Assembly: GCA_017505705.1 (NCBI GenBank)
Contig: JAFVOS010000011.1
Span: forward strand, 45,449 to 109,448
DNA: 64,000 nt
Source of the DNA: Alphaproteobacteria bacterium
GTDB taxonomy: Bacteria; Pseudomonadota; Alphaproteobacteria; Rs-D84
Reading direction: 5' to 3'
Of the stretch, positions 5,838 through 33,588 are shown one piece after another. Under the pieces are notes generated by a model. That model had not been told where the DNA came from, searched no databases, and saw only the letters and a program-made list of their open reading frames with translations. A program made the position numbers and the translations under genes. Position 1 is the first letter of the stretch; each line of letters starts with the position of its first letter.

Positions 5838-7589
5838 CTATACCGCAATATCTTCGACAATAAATTGTGCCGAAACACGACCATTATATTCATTTTCTTT
5901 CAGTTTACCCAACATCAGTATTTTAGCGTCGATATTTCCATCGTCCAGCAAAAAATCCCCAACTGGCGTTCCCACCAGATTAAATCCAACAAAAGCCAAA
6001 TTTGTACCACTGCTTGTTGCGATTGTTCCACGCAGATGCGATCCATTCCCCATCATTGCCACATGACGCAACATCGCCCCATGCAACACCAGCGTTGGTT
6101 CTGGGTTTCCTTGACCAAACGGTTCCAGTGCTTCCAACTTTTTTATCAGTCGCATTGTCGCCCCACCTGCATCCATTTCTGCATCAACAACAACTTCACG
6201 TTCTGGCATATGTCCATTCAATTGTTCACGCACTGCTGCTTCTAAAAACTTACAAAAAGCATCTTCGTTTTCTGCCGGTAATGAAAATCCTGCCGCCGCC
6301 GCATGTCCGCCCCCCTCAGACACAATACCTGCGGCCAATGCATCATGAATTATTTTTCCCAAATCCACCCCTGGAATAGAACGCCCCGAACCATTAATGA
6401 CGCCATCTGATTTTGTTGCAACACACGATGGCAAATTATATTTATCCTTGCATCGACCGGCAATAATCCCCATAACACCACCATGCCAGTTTTCACCACA
6501 CAGGAATAAACTGCAATTTCCTTTTGCACAGCACTGTTCTGCCATTTCTGTTGCCCGCAGCATAATAGCATTTTGTATATCAATACGTTCTTGATTCATC
6601 TGATGCAGTTTTTCTGCCAAATCATGTGCGATTAATGGATTGTCTGTTAATAACAAATCCAATGCAGGTGCCGCAGAATCCAGACGTCCTGCTGCATTCA
6701 ATCGTGGCCCCAGTGCAAAACCTGCTGCATAAACAGATGGCTTTTTTATCCCTGCAATATCCATCAGCACCCGCAGCCCCAAATTCTGGCGCAACCCCAT
6801 AACCTTTAATCCTGTTGCAACAAATGCACGATTTAATCCAACCAATGGCATCGTGTCACAAATCGTTCCCAACGCCACTAAATCCATATAATTCATCAGA
6901 TTAATATTTTCCAATTTTGCGGCCACCTCTGATGACACGTTTCGTGTTTTTAGTTCACGATTAACCGCAACCAATGTCAAAAACGCAACCCCAACACCGG
7001 CCAAATACTGCAACCCCGATGTATCATCACTGCGCTTTGGGTTAACAACCGCATCTGCATCTGGCAGGACCATATCTGGCGAATGATGATCTGTCACAAC
7101 CACACGCATACCAGACTGTACCGCATGTGCAACCTCTACATTACCGCTGATACCACAATCAACTGTAATCAACAATTTTGCGCCATTTGCAACAATATCA
7201 TCCACCGCCGCAATATTCAGACCATATCCTTCGCCTTCACGTGTTGGCAAATGCCAAATAACATCAGCCCCGATTTGTTGCATATACTTTACCAGAATCG
7301 CCGTAGATGTAATTCCATCAACATCATAGTCACCATATACAGCAATCTTGTCCCCATTACAAATTGCATCTGCAACGATAACAGCCGCCCTATCCATATC
7401 AGTCACAACCGATGGATCTGGCATATATTCCTTGATACTGGGGTTTAGAAATTTTTCTGCATCTTCAATTCCTCGATTAATTAATATTTTACTAATCAAG
7501 TCATCTTTTTTTTCTGGCAAAACATTTTCTGTATACACTGGCACCACCCATGCCTGACCCAGCATGGATTTTTCTACTATCTTTCTCAC
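5838..7589 (-). CDS. recJ: Single-stranded-DNA-specific exonuclease RecJ
   Basis: 583 aa. AVYGDYDVDGITSTAIL..., VVVTDHHSP and a DHHA1 region give RecJ architecture and length. Confidence 0.9.
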   Translation of the reverse strand: MRKIVEKSMLGQAWVVPVYTENVLPEKKDDLISKILINRGIEDAEKFLNPSIKEYMPDPSVVTDMDRAAVIVADAICNGDKIAVYGDYDVDGITSTAILVKYMQQIGADVIWHLPTREGEGYGLNIAAVDDIVANGAKLLITVDCGISGNVEVAHAVQSGMRVVVTDHHSPDMVLPDADAVVNPKRSDDTSGLQYLAGVGVAFLTLVAVNRELKTRNVSSEVAAKLENINLMNYMDLVALGTICDTMPLVGLNRAFVATGLKVMGLRQNLGLRVLMDIAGIKKPSVYAAGFALGPRLNAAGRLDSAAPALDLLLTDNPLIAHDLAEKLHQMNQERIDIQNAIMLRATEMAEQCCAKGNCSLFLCGENWHGGVMGIIAGRCKDKYNLPSCVATKSDGVINGSGRSIPGVDLGKIIHDALAAGIVSEGGGHAAAAGFSLPAENEDAFCKFLEAAVREQLNGHMPEREVVVDAEMDAGGATMRLIKKLEALEPFGQGNPEPTLVLHGAMLRHVAMMGNGSHLRGTIATSSGTNLAFVGFNLVGTPVGDFLLDDGNIDAKILMLGKLKENEYNGRVSAQFIVEDIAV

Positions 7590-7632
7590 GCGCTTTACTC
7601 TTTTTTATTATCACGCATATTATAATCGAAAT

Positions 7633-9258
7633 TTATTCAAATAGCAACGGCAGTATACTGTCCAAGATTTTTCCAGTTGTCGGCACTGCATTCCACGCAG
7701 CTGTCTTCCACCCCCAAGAATCCTTGGTTGCCTGGGGTTCATCTAAAATTACCAGAATAGTATACTGTGGTGCATTTGCAGGAAATATACCTACATACGC
7801 AGTTAAATTTCTTTTACTGTCAACCTTGCCATTGCTGTACTTTTCAGCTGTTGCAGTTTTACCACCTATTTCAATACCCGCTATACGTGCTTTTTTTCCA
7901 CTGGTTTCTTCATTCACACGCACCATTATCTGACGCAGTCGTGCCGAAATCTCTTCATCCAGCACCCGTTCACCACGCACAACCCCCAATCCACGTTTTT
8001 GCAAGGTTGGATATATATAAATTCCGCCATTTGTCACCGCATTTACACCCAACATCAGATGCATTGGCGTCACACTCATTCCATGTCCATATGACAACGT
8101 TGCACGTTCAACAGGTCCCCATTTCTGTGGCATCAAACTGCGTTCTGTGCGTCCGAATTCCAAATCTAGCGCCTCATCAAAGTGTAATTTTTCAAAAAAT
8201 TCACGTTGTGCACCATCTGGCAAATCCAGCGCAATTTGCGCACTGCCAACATTACATGAATGCACCATAATTTCTTCGATTGTCAAATTTGGTCTTGGTG
8301 GTTTAAAACTGTAAATATCCTTTACCCGATGAACCACACGCCCAAATTTATCTTCGATTGGGAAAGGTTCTTTGACATAATATTCCTTGTTTATTCCATT
8401 TTGCAGTGCCAACGCAGTATTAAATATTTTAAATATAGACCCCATTTCAAACACACCACGCATTGGCATAAACATACGATTTCGTGCCGGATCCAACGAA
8501 ATATTTTCCGGATCATAGTCTGGCAAAGACACCATCGCCACAATTTCACCCGTTCGTGAATTCATCAGCATTCCCATGGCCGCCTTGGCCCGATATGTTT
8601 GCATTGCAATTGACAATTGGTCATAAAATACGGCTTGAACACGTGCATCCAATGACAACTGCAATGGGTCCTTATTTTCAATCAAATATTTATTATAAAC
8701 ACGTTCTGCTCCTTCCAGGCCACGTCCATCGCCACTAACAAATCCAACAGCATGTGAACACATACGCCCCTTTGGATATTTTCTATCCTGAACAGATTCT
8801 ACTTCCAACCCACGCAGCTTGGCTTTCTTTACCAAATTGCGCTGATAATCACTGGCATACTTTTTTAAATATATATTTTTACGTGACGAATTAACCAACC
8901 CCAACGCATCATTTAAAGAATATTCATACGGGAACACCTGATGAATCATTACTGCGACAGCTTCCTTGTCTTCAACCAGCTTGTTACGTAACACCACATG
9001 TCCCGACATAACATTTTTAGCCAAAATGTCACCATTTCGGTCAACGATGTCTGTACGCTGTACTTCCCACGTTCCATCAGAAACACCACGTCTTGTTTTA
9101 TCACTGCCCGCAAAGCCGTAATATAACGTGCATGCAATAAATGCAACAAACGCCAATCGCAGCCACCAATACACAGTATGCATACGTCCACGACCATCCA
9201 CGTCACCACGAATGCCTGTAAACCCACGTTTAAAAATATCTTGTCCTACATTAAACAT
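7633..9258 (-). CDS. ftsI: Peptidoglycan D,D-transpeptidase FtsI (PBP3-like class B penicillin-binding protein)
   Basis: SxxK (GSIFKIF), SxN and KTG motifs with an N-terminal TM anchor. The six-frame ORF extends to 9345. The start at 9258 (MFNVGQ...) was chosen because it follows the ftsL stop at 9251. Confidence 0.8.
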   Translation of the reverse strand: MFNVGQDIFKRGFTGIRGDVDGRGRMHTVYWWLRLAFVAFIACTLYYGFAGSDKTRRGVSDGTWEVQRTDIVDRNGDILAKNVMSGHVVLRNKLVEDKEAVAVMIHQVFPYEYSLNDALGLVNSSRKNIYLKKYASDYQRNLVKKAKLRGLEVESVQDRKYPKGRMCSHAVGFVSGDGRGLEGAERVYNKYLIENKDPLQLSLDARVQAVFYDQLSIAMQTYRAKAAMGMLMNSRTGEIVAMVSLPDYDPENISLDPARNRMFMPMRGVFEMGSIFKIFNTALALQNGINKEYYVKEPFPIEDKFGRVVHRVKDIYSFKPPRPNLTIEEIMVHSCNVGSAQIALDLPDGAQREFFEKLHFDEALDLEFGRTERSLMPQKWGPVERATLSYGHGMSVTPMHLMLGVNAVTNGGIYIYPTLQKRGLGVVRGERVLDEEISARLRQIMVRVNEETSGKKARIAGIEIGGKTATAEKYSNGKVDSKRNLTAYVGIFPANAPQYTILVILDEPQATKDSWGWKTAAWNAVPTTGKILDSILPLLFE

Positions 9259-9559
9259 CTGTGTTTTTAGGTTCCCTGTCTGGCAATTCATCAACTGATA
9301 CAGATTTTTGATAACCAATTGCGGCTGCACGTGGCACAACCCCACCGACTAAATTCCGCAAAACTTCTGGTCGCTTATATCCTTCGAATCGGGTTGCAGC
9401 ATCTGCAATATCCTGCTGGGTACGAACAATTTGCTGTCTGACATGATTTCTTGTTCTGTTTTGGGTTCTGTAGCACACCTGTAATCCAACCGTCAAAAAG
9501 AACATGGCACACACTGCCCAGATTCCAATATGGAACATTTTTTCGTCTTCACCTATCAC
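9251..9559 (-). CDS. ftsL: Cell division protein FtsL-like (small bitopic membrane protein)
   Basis: 102 aa with a single TM (IGIWAVCAMFFLTVGLQV). Lies immediately upstream of ftsI. Sequence identity alone is weak. Confidence 0.5.
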   Translation of the reverse strand: MIGEDEKMFHIGIWAVCAMFFLTVGLQVCYRTQNRTRNHVRQQIVRTQQDIADAATRFEGYKRPEVLRNLVGGVVPRAAAIGYQKSVSVDELPDREPKNTDV

Positions 9560-9592
9560 GCAAACACCCCCAACCTGATTGATTGCATTTTA

Positions 9593-28494: not shown

Positions 28495-28994
28495 TGCAAT
28501 TAAATCAATCGATGGCTGAAAAAATATTGTCTGACATGGGTATGGACGACATGCCAACGATTGAATACACCCCCATACCAACAGCACTATCTGCCGATTG
28601 GTTCAAGAAATACAAAGACCTGTGCCATACATTTGTATCCAGCCTAACAGATTCTGTCCAAGAACTTGCGTTTATGAATCTAAGCCAGGATGAATTTATG
28701 GCATTACTTATGGGTCAACGAATTCCCAGCAACCTATCCTTTCGCTTTCGCATTCCGTTGACCTGGGGCGGCAAATTAGAAATTGACAATATGTTCATGT
28801 GCTGGACATTCCCACACAGTCAAAGATTAGATAAATTCATCATGATGCAAGGGGACGCAAGAACAATCTGGTTACCAAATCCAGCAAAAAAGATATATCT
28901 GCCCGCCCATACCACTGGCGGCGGCGATGGTGGTAATGCAACCGAAGACCGCTTGGCACAAATGGCTGCTCAACTGGCATCTGGACGCGAATAA
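28494..28994 (+). CDS. Hypothetical protein (166 aa)
   Basis: Translationally coupled to the upstream gene. ...RFRIPLTWGGKLEIDNMFMCWTFPHSQ... is a possible GG...N...C..H HNH-like remnant (speculative). Confidence 0.45.
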   Translation: MQLNQSMAEKILSDMGMDDMPTIEYTPIPTALSADWFKKYKDLCHTFVSSLTDSVQELAFMNLSQDEFMALLMGQRIPSNLSFRFRIPLTWGGKLEIDNMFMCWTFPHSQRLDKFIMMQGDARTIWLPNPAKKIYLPAHTTGGGDGGNATEDRLAQMAAQLASGRE

Positions 28995-29009
28995 AAAGGA
29001 ACGTCAACA

Positions 29010-29444
29010 ATGACATGCGACGAATTTTTGTCTGTAATATCTGCACGTGGTGCAATACTTGCGCCACCTGTATCCGAATCGGACATTGCCCAAACTAACT
29101 CTAATCTCCAGCATATGCGTGCTGCTATATTACCAATGTTTATGATTGATTTATATCGTCACACTGGTGGCATTATGCTGGATACTGGGTATATATTTGG
29201 CCCACACGAAATAGAAAACGGTGCCCGCACCCCTGTCCCTGGCATACTGGACATTAATCGTGATATGTCTGTCATACCTGGCATGATTGGCAAAACAATA
29301 TTTGGGCGCAACGATTTATTTTATTTTGCATTTGACGCATTTGGCACATGCTATATGATGGACAACCTGTCACTGCGCATTCTGCGTAAATACGATGACC
29401 CCCACAAGGCCATGATTGATTGCCTAATAGCTGGAAAATTCTAA
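29010..29444 (+). CDS. Hypothetical protein (144 aa), possibly SMI1/KNR4 (SUKH-1) immunity-like
   Basis: ...VSESDIAQTNSNLQHMRAAILPMFMIDLYRHTGGIML... resembles the LPxDYxxFLxxxNGG pattern of the SMI1/KNR4 family. Similarity is judged by eye only. Confidence 0.4.
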   Translation: MTCDEFLSVISARGAILAPPVSESDIAQTNSNLQHMRAAILPMFMIDLYRHTGGIMLDTGYIFGPHEIENGARTPVPGILDINRDMSVIPGMIGKTIFGRNDLFYFAFDAFGTCYMMDNLSLRILRKYDDPHKAMIDCLIAGKF

Positions 29445-29445
29445 C

Positions 29446-29652
29446 ATGAAAAAAATATCTGTATCTTTATCAGGTCACCAAACCAGTATAACCCTGGAAC
29501 CAGAATTTATTGATGTATTAAAACGCATTGCAAACGCACGTGGTGTATCTGTTGCATCAATAATCTCTGACATTGACAATACACGCACCCCTGATTCCAA
29601 CCTGTCATCTGCGATTCGTGTATGGGTCCTGACCCAGGTTATGAAGCATTAA
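29446..29652 (+). CDS. Ribbon-helix-helix domain DNA-binding protein (alphaproteobacterial 'SLSGHQTS' RHH family)
   Basis: 68 aa. MKKISVSLSGHQTSITLEPEFIDVLKRIANARGVSVASIISDID...NLSSAIRVWVL. A 1-nt gap separates it from the upstream gene. Confidence 0.7.
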   Translation: MKKISVSLSGHQTSITLEPEFIDVLKRIANARGVSVASIISDIDNTRTPDSNLSSAIRVWVLTQVMKH

Positions 29653-31691
29653 TTATTTTCTTTTTTATCAACTGCTGACATTGCAATTGATGACACGCAC
29701 GCAAATCCCAATATGATTATAAACCACCAATTCATACCAATCATTCTGTATGGCGTCATATGTGCACCCCATACAAAACCATCGATATGTCCCGACACAC
29801 CAATTGGGATACTGTCAATAATTGTACCATCGGCTGCAATAAATGCACTTATCCCGGAATAGTTTGCCCGCACAATTGGCAGTCCTGCTTCAATTGCATA
29901 ACGTCGCACCATATCCAGATGTTGATATGTCCCTGGCGTATATCCAAACCAGTTATCATTTGTAATATTAATAATTGCATCTGGCATCAGCCCTGCCCCA
30001 TCTGGCAACAATGAATCAGAAAAAATTATTTCATAGCATACCGCTGGTGCGAACACAAAATCACGTCCCGACACATTCAGACTTATCAGTTCTGGTCCAT
30101 CACCTGGGACCAGATTCGCTGGACTTGGCAAAAATCCCAACGGTCTGTATTCTCCAAACGGCACCAGATGAGATTTGCTGTATACGCTAAGAATCCGGCC
30201 CAAATCATCTGATACCACCAATGAATTTTGCACCCCAACAGATGGTTTATATGTCGACGCACCAACAACAACATTTGTTCCAAGCGCCGTTGCCAATGGC
30301 ATTTCATCACCATCGACCAAAACAAATGGATATGCAGTTTCTGGATATATAACTAAATCAGCACGTGATTGTCCCACCCCTAAAAACAATAATTTTCGCA
30401 GATTTTCTTCTGCATTTTTCATTGCCTGTTCACGATTATGTGTTGCTTTCTGCACCTGGGAAAAAGCAGGTTGTACCACACGAATCATTTGTGGTTTCAT
30501 CTCTGCCCCACTGTCAGATTTCATCATATTTTCACGCCCACACGCAACACCAACCAACATCAATAATATAAATACTAACAGCGAACCCAGCACTGCTTTA
30601 TTTTTTCTGTTTCGCAAAAATTCAACAACCGCCCCAGAAAACCCAACTATTATAAACGTCAGGCCCAACGCCCCCCACAACGACATCGAATTTGCCAACA
30701 TTGGAAAAGGCATTGCAATATTCGCAATTGGATTCCATGGAAAACCCGTAAACAGCCACTCACGCAGCCACAGCACAACCGTCCACACACCTGCAAAAAA
30801 GAACGGACGTGCCCCAGGTTTTACATTAACAATTCTTAATATTGCAAATGGCACACCAAATATTATCACACCTGCCAACCCCAAACCTATTACCCCAGGA
30901 ATTGTCCAAATTGCATATTGTGCGGTCAATTCCGGCACCACATATATAGAATTCAAGACCCACCAAAACATTGAAATTCCATACATTGCACCAAATGGCG
31001 ACACACGTAATAACGCCTGCCAGAAACCAACCTTTTTTGTTGTCCGCACTGTCAACCAATATGCCCCCATAAAACATAAAATCGTCATCCACCAAACATT
31101 AAAAGGTGCAAACCCAAACGCCGCACATGCACCAAACACTGCGTACAGCGCATATTGCCAAAATCCATCATCACGTATTTTCAGTTTGTTAAAAAACGCA
31201 AACACACCTGCCCCAGGACAACAAGATTCATCACCACAGACAAACTCTTGTTCATCATCATACGGATTTTTGATACCAATTTTTTTCAGTGCTTCAATCT
31301 CTTTAGATTCCATTTTTTTTGCTTGTCTATCATTTAAATGATCATATCCAATCAAATGCAAAACACCATGCACAACCATATGTGCCGTATGATTTTCCAT
31401 CGTTATATTTTCTGTTTTTGCCTGTTGCATCACCGTATCAAATGAAATATAAATATCCCCCAACAGAACATCATCCCCCAGTTCAAACGATAAAACATTT
31501 GTTGGCATATCTTTGCCACGATATTCACGATTAAGCGCATGAATTTCCGAATCATTTGTTAATATAATCGACACCTCTGATTCGCCATATCCCTTTAAAT
31601 CCAGCGCAGACACGATTTTTTCAAAATCGATTTTGAATTTTTTCCAGCGTTTATCATGAACATCAACATATACTTTCATTTGCATTCCCAT
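29649..31691 (-). CDS. lnt: Apparent fusion: rRNA maturation RNase YbeY (N-terminal ~150 aa) + apolipoprotein N-acyltransferase Lnt (C-terminal ~520 aa)
   Basis: 680 aa in one frame. N-terminal ...HMVVHGVLHLIGYDHLNDRQAKKMESKEIEALKKIGIKNPYDDEQEF is the YbeY H3xH motif and typical end. The Lnt N-terminal TM region (ALYAVFGACAAFGFAPFNVWW...) follows a ~20 aa linker (VCGDESCCPGAGVFAFFNKLKI) with no stop. The C-terminal CN-hydrolase domain (...VCYEIIFSD...) completes Lnt. Confidence 0.75.
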   Translation of the reverse strand: MGMQMKVYVDVHDKRWKKFKIDFEKIVSALDLKGYGESEVSIILTNDSEIHALNREYRGKDMPTNVLSFELGDDVLLGDIYISFDTVMQQAKTENITMENHTAHMVVHGVLHLIGYDHLNDRQAKKMESKEIEALKKIGIKNPYDDEQEFVCGDESCCPGAGVFAFFNKLKIRDDGFWQYALYAVFGACAAFGFAPFNVWWMTILCFMGAYWLTVRTTKKVGFWQALLRVSPFGAMYGISMFWWVLNSIYVVPELTAQYAIWTIPGVIGLGLAGVIIFGVPFAILRIVNVKPGARPFFFAGVWTVVLWLREWLFTGFPWNPIANIAMPFPMLANSMSLWGALGLTFIIVGFSGAVVEFLRNRKNKAVLGSLLVFILLMLVGVACGRENMMKSDSGAEMKPQMIRVVQPAFSQVQKATHNREQAMKNAEENLRKLLFLGVGQSRADLVIYPETAYPFVLVDGDEMPLATALGTNVVVGASTYKPSVGVQNSLVVSDDLGRILSVYSKSHLVPFGEYRPLGFLPSPANLVPGDGPELISLNVSGRDFVFAPAVCYEIIFSDSLLPDGAGLMPDAIINITNDNWFGYTPGTYQHLDMVRRYAIEAGLPIVRANYSGISAFIAADGTIIDSIPIGVSGHIDGFVWGAHMTPYRMIGMNWWFIIILGFACVSSIAMSAVDKKENN

Positions 31692-31710: not shown

Positions 31711-33588
31711 TTATGCCATTGTTGTCTTATACTCTTGACCATACAGCAACAAATCATTCTTTGCATTTTTCTGATGAATTTGTTTAATTCCTGCATTAAA
31801 AGCAATTTTATTTTTTCCACTCTGCTTAATTTTCTCTGCAACACGTGTAATATCTTTTTGCACTTTTCTGTTGCCGTTGGCCAACGCCAGTTTATAGTTT
31901 GCCAACGCTTTTTGATAATTTCCCAACTGTTCATACGCAAACCCAGCATTATATTGTGCCGCCCCATATTGAGATTTATCACCGATTCGCTGAACAATCT
32001 CGCGTGCCTGGGCAATTGCTTCGTTATACATCCCCAATTTATTATATGTTACAGATAAATCATTACGCAGCAATGCATTATCTGGATACTGCAAAATCAT
32101 ATCATTATATTTTTCAGCTGCTGCTTTATAATCACCTGCCCGATACGATGCCACTGCATCTTCATACAACTGGTCATATCCAATAACATATGTTTTAACT
32201 TCAACAGCTTCTTCTTTTTTTATTTTTTTGTCTGATTTTAGAACATTGTCCCAAACAGTTGGCGCACCAATTTCACATTTTCCCTGTGCGCAATGTTGCG
32301 CCACATCTTTTGGCAACCAATCAGACACAGGCTGCCACAAACCGCCAACTAATGGATTTCCTTGTCTATCTACTGGATTTTCCAACCACGCATTAAACTT
32401 ATCCAGTGTTTCATCATTTACGACACGCTGTCCTTGTTCTTCTATGAACCAATTATCTCTTTTGCCACCAACGATTTTATAGAACTCATAGAACCCCCCA
32501 ACTGGTATTTTCAAGAAAACCTCTGGTGCTATATTTCCTTTTATAACCTGGGCTTCCAACCATCTGCGCCATTTCAACCCATTGCCACCCTTTAAAAAAT
32601 TTCCCAAACTGTCGGCTATATCTTTTTTATCCCCACCCATCAGCCAAACACTGCCAACGGACGTCATATGTTCTACTGGATATTTGGCGAACACAGCCTT
32701 TACCATTTCATTTGTTATCGCATTTCCGTTTTCCGCATGCAGTTTATCCAGTTCTGCAAATCTTTCATGATAATTACGATTTCTTTTTTTTCCTATATAC
32801 GACGGCTCTATTAAATCCGTCCCCAGATTATATGTTGCCGCCGACAAAGATATTAATTCTGCCGCCTGTTTTATATCAACATCACCGAATGCCACATCAT
32901 AACAATACAACCTGAACAAAGTCTCGTTTTCCATAATATGCCAGCATGCCAATTCATATGCTTCTTCTGTTGTAATTGGTGGCGTATCTTTGGTTATACT
33001 TTTTTTATCTTTTAACATTGTCGAACCAAAACCAATTGTCCAAACGCCCTGTCCATCCTGATATGGTATATGTTCTCCTTTATCATTGGTTTTAACGCCT
33101 TCTTTGGCAATCAAGTCTGCAACCAGATACGGCAACACAGGTTTCATTTTATCCAGATATTCTGCATATGTTCCACGCTTTGCCTGCTCTGCTTCACGTT
33201 CTGTTTTTACCCGTTCCACCAAATCGGCCAGTTCTATTCCCCCTTTAACCCCACCGATAATCAATGCAATCATCATGTAATAAATAATATGCACCGACAA
33301 ATTTGGATTTTTTTTCATAAACGCAGACAGCTTTTTATCCTGCTTGTACTTATTTTTTTCAACCTTCATTTCACGCAATGCATTTTCCCCGGCCCGCAAC
33401 GCATGATTATCCAGCGTCAAATATTTTACAGCCCACGTTAAAAACTGCATCAACCCAGTCATGGTCAACCCCGCCCCCTTGGCGGCTTTTCCATACCACT
33501 TATCAGGTTGTAAACTCAGAATCCGCTTTGTCGCCCGACCAAACGCACGATGCGGTGCATTAACAATATTTTCAAAATCTTCAGACAT
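31711..33588 (-). CDS. Membrane-anchored protein with GH24 (T4-lysozyme-like) domain and C-terminal TPR repeats
   Basis: 625 aa. One TM (VHIIYYMMIALIIGGV). ...IAKEGVKTNDKGEHIPYQDGQGVWTIGFGST...ITTEEAYEL matches the GH24 E...D...T signature (EG..Y.D..G..TIG.G). C-terminal YEDAVASYRAGDYKAAAEKY...LGMYNEAIAQ...LGNYQKALANYKLAL forms TPR-like repeats. Confidence 0.6.
   Translation of the reverse strand: MSEDFENIVNAPHRAFGRATKRILSLQPDKWYGKAAKGAGLTMTGLMQFLTWAVKYLTLDNHALRAGENALREMKVEKNKYKQDKKLSAFMKKNPNLSVHIIYYMMIALIIGGVKGGIELADLVERVKTEREAEQAKRGTYAEYLDKMKPVLPYLVADLIAKEGVKTNDKGEHIPYQDGQGVWTIGFGSTMLKDKKSITKDTPPITTEEAYELACWHIMENETLFRLYCYDVAFGDVDIKQAAELISLSAATYNLGTDLIEPSYIGKKRNRNYHERFAELDKLHAENGNAITNEMVKAVFAKYPVEHMTSVGSVWLMGGDKKDIADSLGNFLKGGNGLKWRRWLEAQVIKGNIAPEVFLKIPVGGFYEFYKIVGGKRDNWFIEEQGQRVVNDETLDKFNAWLENPVDRQGNPLVGGLWQPVSDWLPKDVAQHCAQGKCEIGAPTVWDNVLKSDKKIKKEEAVEVKTYVIGYDQLYEDAVASYRAGDYKAAAEKYNDMILQYPDNALLRNDLSVTYNKLGMYNEAIAQAREIVQRIGDKSQYGAAQYNAGFAYEQLGNYQKALANYKLALANGNRKVQKDITRVAEKIKQSGKNKIAFNAGIKQIHQKNAKNDLLLYGQEYKTTMA

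Follow-up and report, generated by a model that had tools for sequence, protein, structure and literature searches.

An in-frame fusion of YbeY endoribonuclease and apolipoprotein N-acyltransferase in Candidatus Enterousia and related Alphaproteobacteria

Results

YbeY and Lnt in one open reading frame

In a 64,000-nucleotide stretch of an alphaproteobacterial contig (JAFVOS010000011.1, positions 45,449 to 109,448; below, the window), we found that YbeY and apolipoprotein N-acyltransferase (Lnt) are encoded by a single uninterrupted open reading frame (ORF). YbeY is a zinc-dependent endoribonuclease that matures the 3′ end of 16S rRNA. Direct reading of the sequence places the ORF at 29649-31691 of the minus strand, with an ATG start and 680 amino acids (aa), exactly as a preliminary description of this DNA had it. 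As judged from its recurrence in relatives and from the conservation of the junction, the ORF is a true gene fusion that evolution has kept, and it is likely to be translated into a single polypeptide. Translation probably begins at the third ATG (M5, position 31679), which would give a product of 676 aa, because GGGA stands 7 nucleotides (nt) upstream of it and the homologues begin with MKVY. The elements of the fusion are as follows (pLDDT, predicted local distance difference test score; TM, transmembrane).

29649..31691, minus strand: complete ybeY::lnt fusion ORF, 680 aa from the first ATG
31245..31679, minus strand: YbeY endoribonuclease domain, residues 5-149, complete to its native C-terminus
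31338..31370, minus strand: YbeY zinc site, H108-x3-H112-x5-H118 (HGVLHLIGYDH)
31194..31244, minus strand: inter-domain linker, residues 150-166 (FVCGDESCCPGAGVFAF), predicted to be flexible (pLDDT <50)
31212..31238, minus strand: Cys-rich motif, C152-G-D-E-S-C157-C158-P159-G160 (family consensus C-x-D-x-S-C-C-P-G)
31158..31211, minus strand: Lys/Arg-rich juxtamembrane segment, residues 161-178, with a predicted helix at 161-169
30507..31157, minus strand: Lnt membrane domain (LNT_N), residues 179-395, seven predicted long helices; includes W319
29757..30506, minus strand: Lnt periplasmic CN-hydrolase domain, residues 396-645, with E451, K506, C552, E514, Y553 and E554
30339-30341, 30174-30176 and 30036-30038, minus strand: codons of the Lnt catalytic residues E451, K506 and C552, respectively
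29649..29756, minus strand: final transmembrane helix (TM8), followed by a short tail and the stop codon

Both enzymes are recognized by their families. The YbeY family of Pfam (PF02130) matches residues 31-137 (E 6e-34, 117 bits against a cut-off of 25), and LNT_N (PF20154; residues 187-353, E 1e-19, 71.6 bits) and CN_hydrolase (PF00795; residues 433-625, E 1e-16, 61.1 bits) both exceed their curated cut-offs. The NCBIfam equivalogs TIGR00043 (rRNA maturation RNase YbeY; 124.7 bits, cut-off 45) and TIGR00546 (lnt; 224.1 bits, cut-off 132.9) agree, so that the complete Lnt of the preliminary description, with its TM N-terminal domain and CN-hydrolase, is borne out. The same holds for its complete YbeY: HGVLHLIGYDH and the terminal NPYDDEQEF are both present, and the alignment of query residues 26-149 to residues 27-155 of 155 in Escherichia coli YbeY (1xm5, E 8e-26) runs to the last residue. 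Alignment to the Lnt proteins of E. coli and Pseudomonas aeruginosa begins at about their residue 16, which corresponds to query residue 182. Since E. coli YbeY ends at query residue 149 and the Lnt alignment begins at 182, residues ~150-166 form a true linker, and the Cys-containing peptide VCGDESCCPGAGVF noted before is indeed found here. Residues ~167-178 are, on the evidence of the alignments, Lnt's own short cytoplasmic N-terminal tail; the Lys/Arg-rich juxtamembrane segment resembles MMKKNNIGGVFNRFKS, the N-terminus of the unfused Lnt of contig L084 (see below). The tryptic peptide that spans the junction of the window fusion is NPYDDEQEFVCGDESCCPGAGVFAFFNK.

The catalytic residues are preserved. 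E. coli Lnt has seven essential residues, W237, E267, K335, E343, C387, Y388 and E389, of which E267, K335 and C387 form the triad (PMC3850990). All seven have equivalents in the fusions (W319, the counterpart of W237, E451, K506, E514, C552, Y553 and E554), and these occur in 263 of the 263 distinct fusion proteins that we collected overall, as does YbeY Arg58 (E. coli R59). The zinc-binding His residues are likewise found in 263 of 263, a count that is circular because the His motif served to select those sequences. In a 62-sequence alignment H108, H112, H118, Arg58 and Lnt E451, K506 and C552 are all invariant. Mean pairwise identity is highest in YbeY (67%), followed by the hydrolase domain (62%) and the membrane domain (56%); YbeY, being better conserved than the rest of the protein, is therefore not in decay. 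Both halves thus appear functional, judging by these residues.

Distribution of the fusion

We scanned one genome per GTDB species, of which 212 encode a relative, and examined the best 80 (54-79% identity). All 80 carry ybeY and lnt in one uninterrupted frame, as does the window; the absence of the ybeY stop reported earlier is thus a property of the group, and the suggested search for the same fusion in related genomes gave a positive answer. Most of these genomes bear the label Candidatus Enterousia or uncultured Alphaproteobacteria, and they derive from the gut of ruminants, horses, chickens, mice and humans. Members of the order Rs-D84, which includes Enterousia, have genomes of less than ~1 Mbp and are regarded as partner-dependent (PMC12306168). 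The best 120 matches among 5.8 billion proteins, derived from ENA, NCBI, JGI and Logan assemblies, are 663-698 aa long, range from 99% down to 59% identity and contain all three Pfam domains.

The YbeY and linker part alone was also searched against 1.84 billion cluster representatives. Many of the closest YbeYs are themselves fusions of 618-720 aa, and from about rank 20 on ordinary proteins of 140-180 aa appear; the fusion persists at YbeY identities down to ~43%. A separate observation concerns P0250 (504 aa), which has an N-terminal YbeY fragment, 68% identical to window residues 6-86, behind an unrelated region of 350 aa and followed by sequence that is also unrelated. It probably comes from a chimeric or misassembled contig.

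The interdomain tether

In an 81-sequence alignment, Cys152 is found in 73, Cys157 in 71, Cys158 in 75, Pro159 in 75 and Gly160 in 74 of the 78-80 sequences with a residue in the column. The consensus of the Enterousia-type proteins is NPY-x5-7-C-x-D-x-S-C-C-P-G-[GA]-[KR], followed by the basic juxtamembrane helix. Pro159 and Gly160 are encoded by all four of their synonymous codons, and the Cys positions mix TGT and TGC. Because the residues of the motif are kept while synonymous codons vary freely, we conclude that the linker is selected as protein. For the same reason we rejected the possibility that CCPGG is kept as a Shine-Dalgarno sequence (GGNGG) at the RNA level.

Two further explanations of the motif were discarded. 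In the long ORFs of the fusion loci (413,105 aa) we counted 63 copies of CCPG, each of them within the fusion linker; it is hence not a general trait of the proteins of this lineage. Nor is it a lipobox: no signal peptide precedes it, the residues before the Cys differ from the pattern L-[AS]-[GA]-C, and its predicted location is cytoplasmic.

The distance from NPY to the first transmembrane helix (TM1) varies from 4 to 47 aa among the fusions, always in frame, and of the 259 with a parsed linker 215 have at least three Cys in it. Distant fusions (P0131, P0132, P0134, P0137, P0138 and many others) pass from NPY through a short Lys/Glu-rich, Cys-free linker to TM1. Hence the fusion predates the Cys motif and is more widely distributed. 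At the other extreme, the linker of L057 (~6430-6520), CNCGCGGKCNCVDCKCKNCSCCNCPG, is a metallothionein-like expansion; P0352 is similar, and these linkers hold 9-11 Cys. No Pfam or NCBIfam family spans residues 150-178, and no described metal-binding Cys motif was matched. Our leading guess from the sequence pattern is that the Cys cluster may be a metal- or redox-binding element beside the zinc enzyme; a juxtamembrane S-acylation or processing site is a weaker alternative.

Cysteine-rich proteins of another kind are encoded downstream of the fusion in several Enterousia genomes. They are large (640-790 aa), very Cys-rich, repeat-containing and secreted-looking, and share a C-terminal region of the form ...IDELQKNA..MKEKEQSTANK.... 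The ORFs are:

L009 8053-10155: Cys-rich downstream ORF
L019 7917-10289: Cys-rich downstream ORF
L012 8051-9973: Cys-rich downstream ORF
L007 8024-8647: Cys-rich downstream ORF

Predicted membrane topology

AlphaFold2, run with the family alignment, gave a model with a mean pLDDT of 81 and a predicted template-modelling score (pTM) of 0.70. Both domains are confidently folded, and the YbeY region has mostly confident pLDDT; residues 146-171 fall below 50 except for a short helix at 161-169. In the model, the hydrolase domain is preceded by seven long helices, all of them downstream of the linker, and followed by one more. This helix count, together with the Lys/Arg-rich segment that precedes TM1 in the sequence alignment, is consistent with an N-in topology. 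The hydrolase domain of Lnt must face the periplasm for function (Lnt structures such as 5n6h and 5xhq). With an odd number of helices before a periplasmic hydrolase domain, the N-terminus, and hence YbeY, would be cytoplasmic. YbeY would thus be tethered to the cytoplasmic face of the inner membrane through TM1 of Lnt and made in a 1:1 ratio with it. Because its substrates are in the cytoplasm as well, the fusion would be topologically permissive.

Operon context

Separate genes are found elsewhere, as the preliminary description had pointed out for the ybeZ-ybeY-corC-lnt order: the alphaproteobacterial contig L082, with a stand-alone YbeY of 45% identity, reads miaB-phoH-ybeY-corC-lnt. When CorC and PhoH of this locus were used as tblastn queries, neither was found in the 64-kb window or in 83 fusion loci. 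The reported absence of corC therefore stands and extends to phoH, and a corC remnant in the linker or nearby was rejected on the same grounds. L084, in which a stand-alone YbeY of 54% identity lies in gatB-miaB-ybeY-lnt, and L081 and L083, which read miaB-ybeY::lnt with short Cys-free linkers, show further arrangements; in Enterousia the fusion follows a lysozyme/TPR (tetratricopeptide repeat) gene and there is no miaB.

The unfused loci suggest how the frames may have merged. In L084 (3320-3340), the end of ybeY (...NPYDDEKK*) and the start of lnt (MMKKNNIGGVFNRFKS...) share 17 nt, read in different frames, at an A8 run, and in L086 (~5995-6011) the overlap is 11 nt. In both, the lnt ATG lies inside the terminal NPY-D/E codons of ybeY (TAT GAx, +1 frame), so that a one-base insertion or deletion in the overlap suffices to fuse the frames. 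Overlaps of 11-17 nt look like translational coupling, which would predispose the genes to fusion. We propose that an ancestral miaB-phoH-ybeY-corC-lnt operon lost phoH and corC in a reduced-genome lineage, so that ybeY and lnt would have come to overlap and the lnt ATG to lie, in the +1 frame, within the NPY-D/E codons; a small frame change in the overlap may then have merged them. The Enterousia-type proteins would later have gained the conserved C-x4-CCPG cluster in the tether, and in them YbeY would be joined to TM1 of Lnt by a flexible tether of ~17 aa and the basic N-terminal tail of Lnt. From these comparisons of loci, the fusion most probably arose via operon compaction in reduced genomes.

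A second lineage (L086-L088) has the order proS-mlaD-ybeY-lnt-...-dksA-trx, in which ybeY and lnt either overlap or are separated by 19 nt. In L085 (P0154), which shares this synteny, the two are fused. The Lnt half of P0154 is 40-46% identical to the unfused Lnts of the L086-L088 type versus 30-36% to those of other fusions; L085 is a fusion of independent origin or else a frameshift error in this one contig.

The genes that flank the fusion in the window, and the upstream gene in two relatives, are:

31711..33588, minus strand: phage-lysozyme-like and TPR protein, 625 aa, 19 nt upstream of the fusion
29446..29652, plus strand: RHH_4 gene convergent with the fusion, 68 aa; its stop and that of the fusion overlap by 4 nt
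L012 4077-5978: lysozyme/TPR gene
L009 4035-5999: lysozyme/TPR gene

The lysozyme/TPR gene is probably co-transcribed with the fusion. A lysozyme/TPR protein of 625-654 aa is encoded directly upstream of the fusion in L007, L009, L012, L013, L015 and L019, where its gene occupies the place that miaB/phoH have in relatives and is preceded by the gene of a MucR/Ros regulator.

On the other side, the RHH_4 gene belongs to a convergent cassette (27514-29652, plus strand) of RHH_4 (68 aa) and ORFs of 144, 166 and 326 aa; these three have no Pfam match. The genome of the distant fusion L081 has the same layout at 7470-9567 (minus strand), RHH_4 of 69 aa and then ORFs of 142, 171 and 319 aa, and there the RHH_4 stop overlaps the fusion stop by 56 nt. 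In the 326-aa ORF (27514-28494, plus strand), a hydrophobic segment at the N-terminus is followed by a long low-complexity middle part rich in Pro, Thr and Gln. It shares ~100 nt with the end of a 258-aa ORF on the opposite strand (26840-27616, minus strand), which likewise lacks a Pfam match; one of the two starts, or both, are probably misplaced. Across the window (1-64000) the GC skew of the plus strand is uniformly negative (-0.13 to -0.32 per 4-kb block), at a GC content of 39-43%, and most long ORFs are on the minus strand, an unusually strong strand asymmetry.

Discussion

The above results bear on several other explanations of the continuous frame. In one, a stop codon or frameshift at the junction was lost in sequencing or assembly and the genes are actually separate. 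Single-contig cases of this kind may exist, as P0130 resembles a frameshifted fusion, P0154 is a lone fused contig amid unfused relatives, and the overlap in L084 contains an A8 run. For the fusion as a whole, however, we regard an artefact as excluded because the fusion recurs across relatives: the frame is continuous in 80 independent species genomes, the 263 distinct proteins come from different studies and assemblers, and the linkers differ in length yet always by a multiple of three and carry a conserved amino-acid motif. One ORF might also yield two proteins, free YbeY and free Lnt, through internal initiation of Lnt or cleavage of a polyprotein in the linker; a lost stop with internal reinitiation was the second option of the preliminary description, which proposed looking for a GTG or TTG start with a ribosome-binding site near the linker. 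The linker is predicted to be disordered and hence protease-accessible, the region once had a start signal, given the coupling of lnt translation to the ybeY terminus in unfused relatives, and the conserved Cys-Cys-Pro-Gly could in principle serve processing. Among 81 aligned genes, however, neither an ATG, GTG or TTG nor a Shine-Dalgarno sequence is conserved from the linker to TM1. At the junction, 5% of sequences have a Shine-Dalgarno-like motif ahead of an in-frame start, versus 7% in equal-sized windows elsewhere in the gene, so we rejected reinitiation. Linkers of the outer clade, which can be as short as ~4-10 aa, share no motif usable for cleavage; moreover, nothing would select against a stop codon if separate products were needed, and none has reappeared in 80 species. 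Altogether we hold two products to be unlikely. Length variation in frame, the conserved linker peptide and its codon variation argue for translation through the junction and for selection on the resulting peptide, in favour of the genuine fusion protein that the preliminary description had given as its first option. Yet another view takes YbeY for a decaying remnant or a repurposed non-catalytic cytoplasmic domain, such that only Lnt activity matters; decaying genes are frequent in reduced genomes, and the locus lacks PhoH/YbeZ and CorC/YbeX, with which YbeY is partnered. This we find very improbable, since YbeY is the best-conserved part of the protein, with R58 and the three zinc His residues invariant, passes its equivalog cut-off by a wide margin (125 bits against 45), has no second copy in the window and is near-universal in bacteria, where it is usually important for 16S rRNA maturation.

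Several points weigh against a single membrane-tethered polypeptide with a functional Cys tether. The fusion sequences all come from metagenome-assembled genomes or metagenome contigs and none from a cultured organism, and it is from them that we infer expression as one chain. In the window a GTG, at V163, comes after GGGGCAGGT; occasional initiation at such non-conserved starts is possible, and post-translational cleavage within the flexible linker may occur. AlphaFold2 predicts the arrangement of the two domains relative to each other without confidence and shows no ordered linker. As for the cysteines, a metal-binding role is suggested only by their pattern and by the metallothionein-like expansions in L057 and P0352, and 28 of the 259 parsed fusions lack linker Cys, so that the cluster is not needed for fusion as such.

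Whether the fusion is adaptive is a separate matter. It might reflect a functional link between YbeY and Lnt, for example a coupling of ribosome maturation or quality control to lipoprotein biogenesis, with the Cys tether in a metal or redox regulatory role. Linkage of ybeY and lnt both in E. coli, within its ybeZYX-lnt operon, and in Alphaproteobacteria, persistence of the fusion over deep divergence (YbeY identity down to ~43%), the possible second fusion in the mlaD-ybeY-lnt lineage and the gain of a strongly conserved linker motif would all fit. However, fusion of adjacent overlapping genes is the expected neutral result of genome reduction and is topologically harmless here, no biochemical link between YbeY and Lnt is known, and the possible second event depends on one contig. 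An adaptive origin is thus rather unlikely in our estimate, and a neutral origin remains the simplest account. A bolder and also improbable version has the fusion link YbeY-dependent ribosome maturation or quality control with both the inner membrane and the pathway of lipoproteins, with C-x4-CCPG as a metal- or redox-sensing switch of the zinc nuclease. The motif would then act, for instance, as a 'cysteine switch' capping the YbeY zinc or as a local zinc store, and the tether might partly substitute for CorC, the metal-homeostasis partner that was lost. This, if true, would be a natural 'Rosetta stone' explanation for the ybeY-lnt linkage across Proteobacteria.

The arrangement can be compared with several known systems. 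In the E. coli ybeZ-ybeY-ybeX(corC)-lnt operon (bioRxiv 10.1101/2023.03.20.533420) and in alphaproteobacterial miaB-phoH-ybeY-corC-lnt, the same two enzymes are encoded in the same order and orientation, and their catalytic residues are intact in the fusion. Unlike those operons, the locus lacks phoH and corC, ybeY has lost its stop, and both enzymes are part of one chain with a dedicated linker that would tether YbeY to the membrane. The nearest precedent for an Lnt fusion is the two-domain Lnt-Ppm1 protein of Mycobacterium tuberculosis (Rv2051c; BCG_2070c), the halves of which are separate in M. smegmatis (MSMEG_3860/3859; PMC3850990). It, too, occurs in nature as a functional Lnt joined to the protein that an adjacent gene encodes. 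There, however, a polyprenol-phosphate-mannose synthase is attached to the Lnt C-terminus, whereas here an RNase precedes the Lnt N-terminus, a partner without a known biochemical tie to lipoprotein modification. Plant chloroplast YbeY resembles the fusion in being extended C-terminally by a second enzymatic domain, in this case HAD-like; its partner, however, is a different, soluble domain in a eukaryotic organelle protein. RNase Y, with an N-terminal TM helix, and RNase E, with an amphipathic membrane-targeting helix, are likewise RNA-processing nucleases that work at the cytoplasmic face of the membrane, but they belong to unrelated families and their anchors are short dedicated segments, not a whole second enzyme.

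Full-text searches of the literature turned up no paper on a YbeY-Lnt fusion, and source databases name the fusion proteins only 'apolipoprotein N-acyltransferase'. This leaves an annotation gap, through which genomes that bear the fusion could appear to be without ybeY. The novelty is the domain architecture with its lineage-specific linker; taken singly, the two enzymes are typical representatives of their families, YbeY and Lnt.

To our knowledge, the exact mode of action of YbeY is still debated, though it is among the most conserved bacterial proteins, and we know of no accepted explanation for the persistent ybeY-lnt linkage in the ybeZYX-lnt operon. The Cys-rich tether is a small, strongly conserved element at the YbeY/Lnt junction of the Enterousia-type proteins, and the fusion as a whole offers a stepwise example of how operon shrinkage in reduced genomes may turn overlapping genes into a bifunctional protein. 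It also provides a ready-made construct and a natural experiment for the link between YbeY and Lnt. As the fusion is stable over hundreds of species, YbeY can presumably work while tethered to the membrane and in a 1:1 ratio with Lnt, and a membrane-tethered YbeY would constrain models of its site and mode of action.

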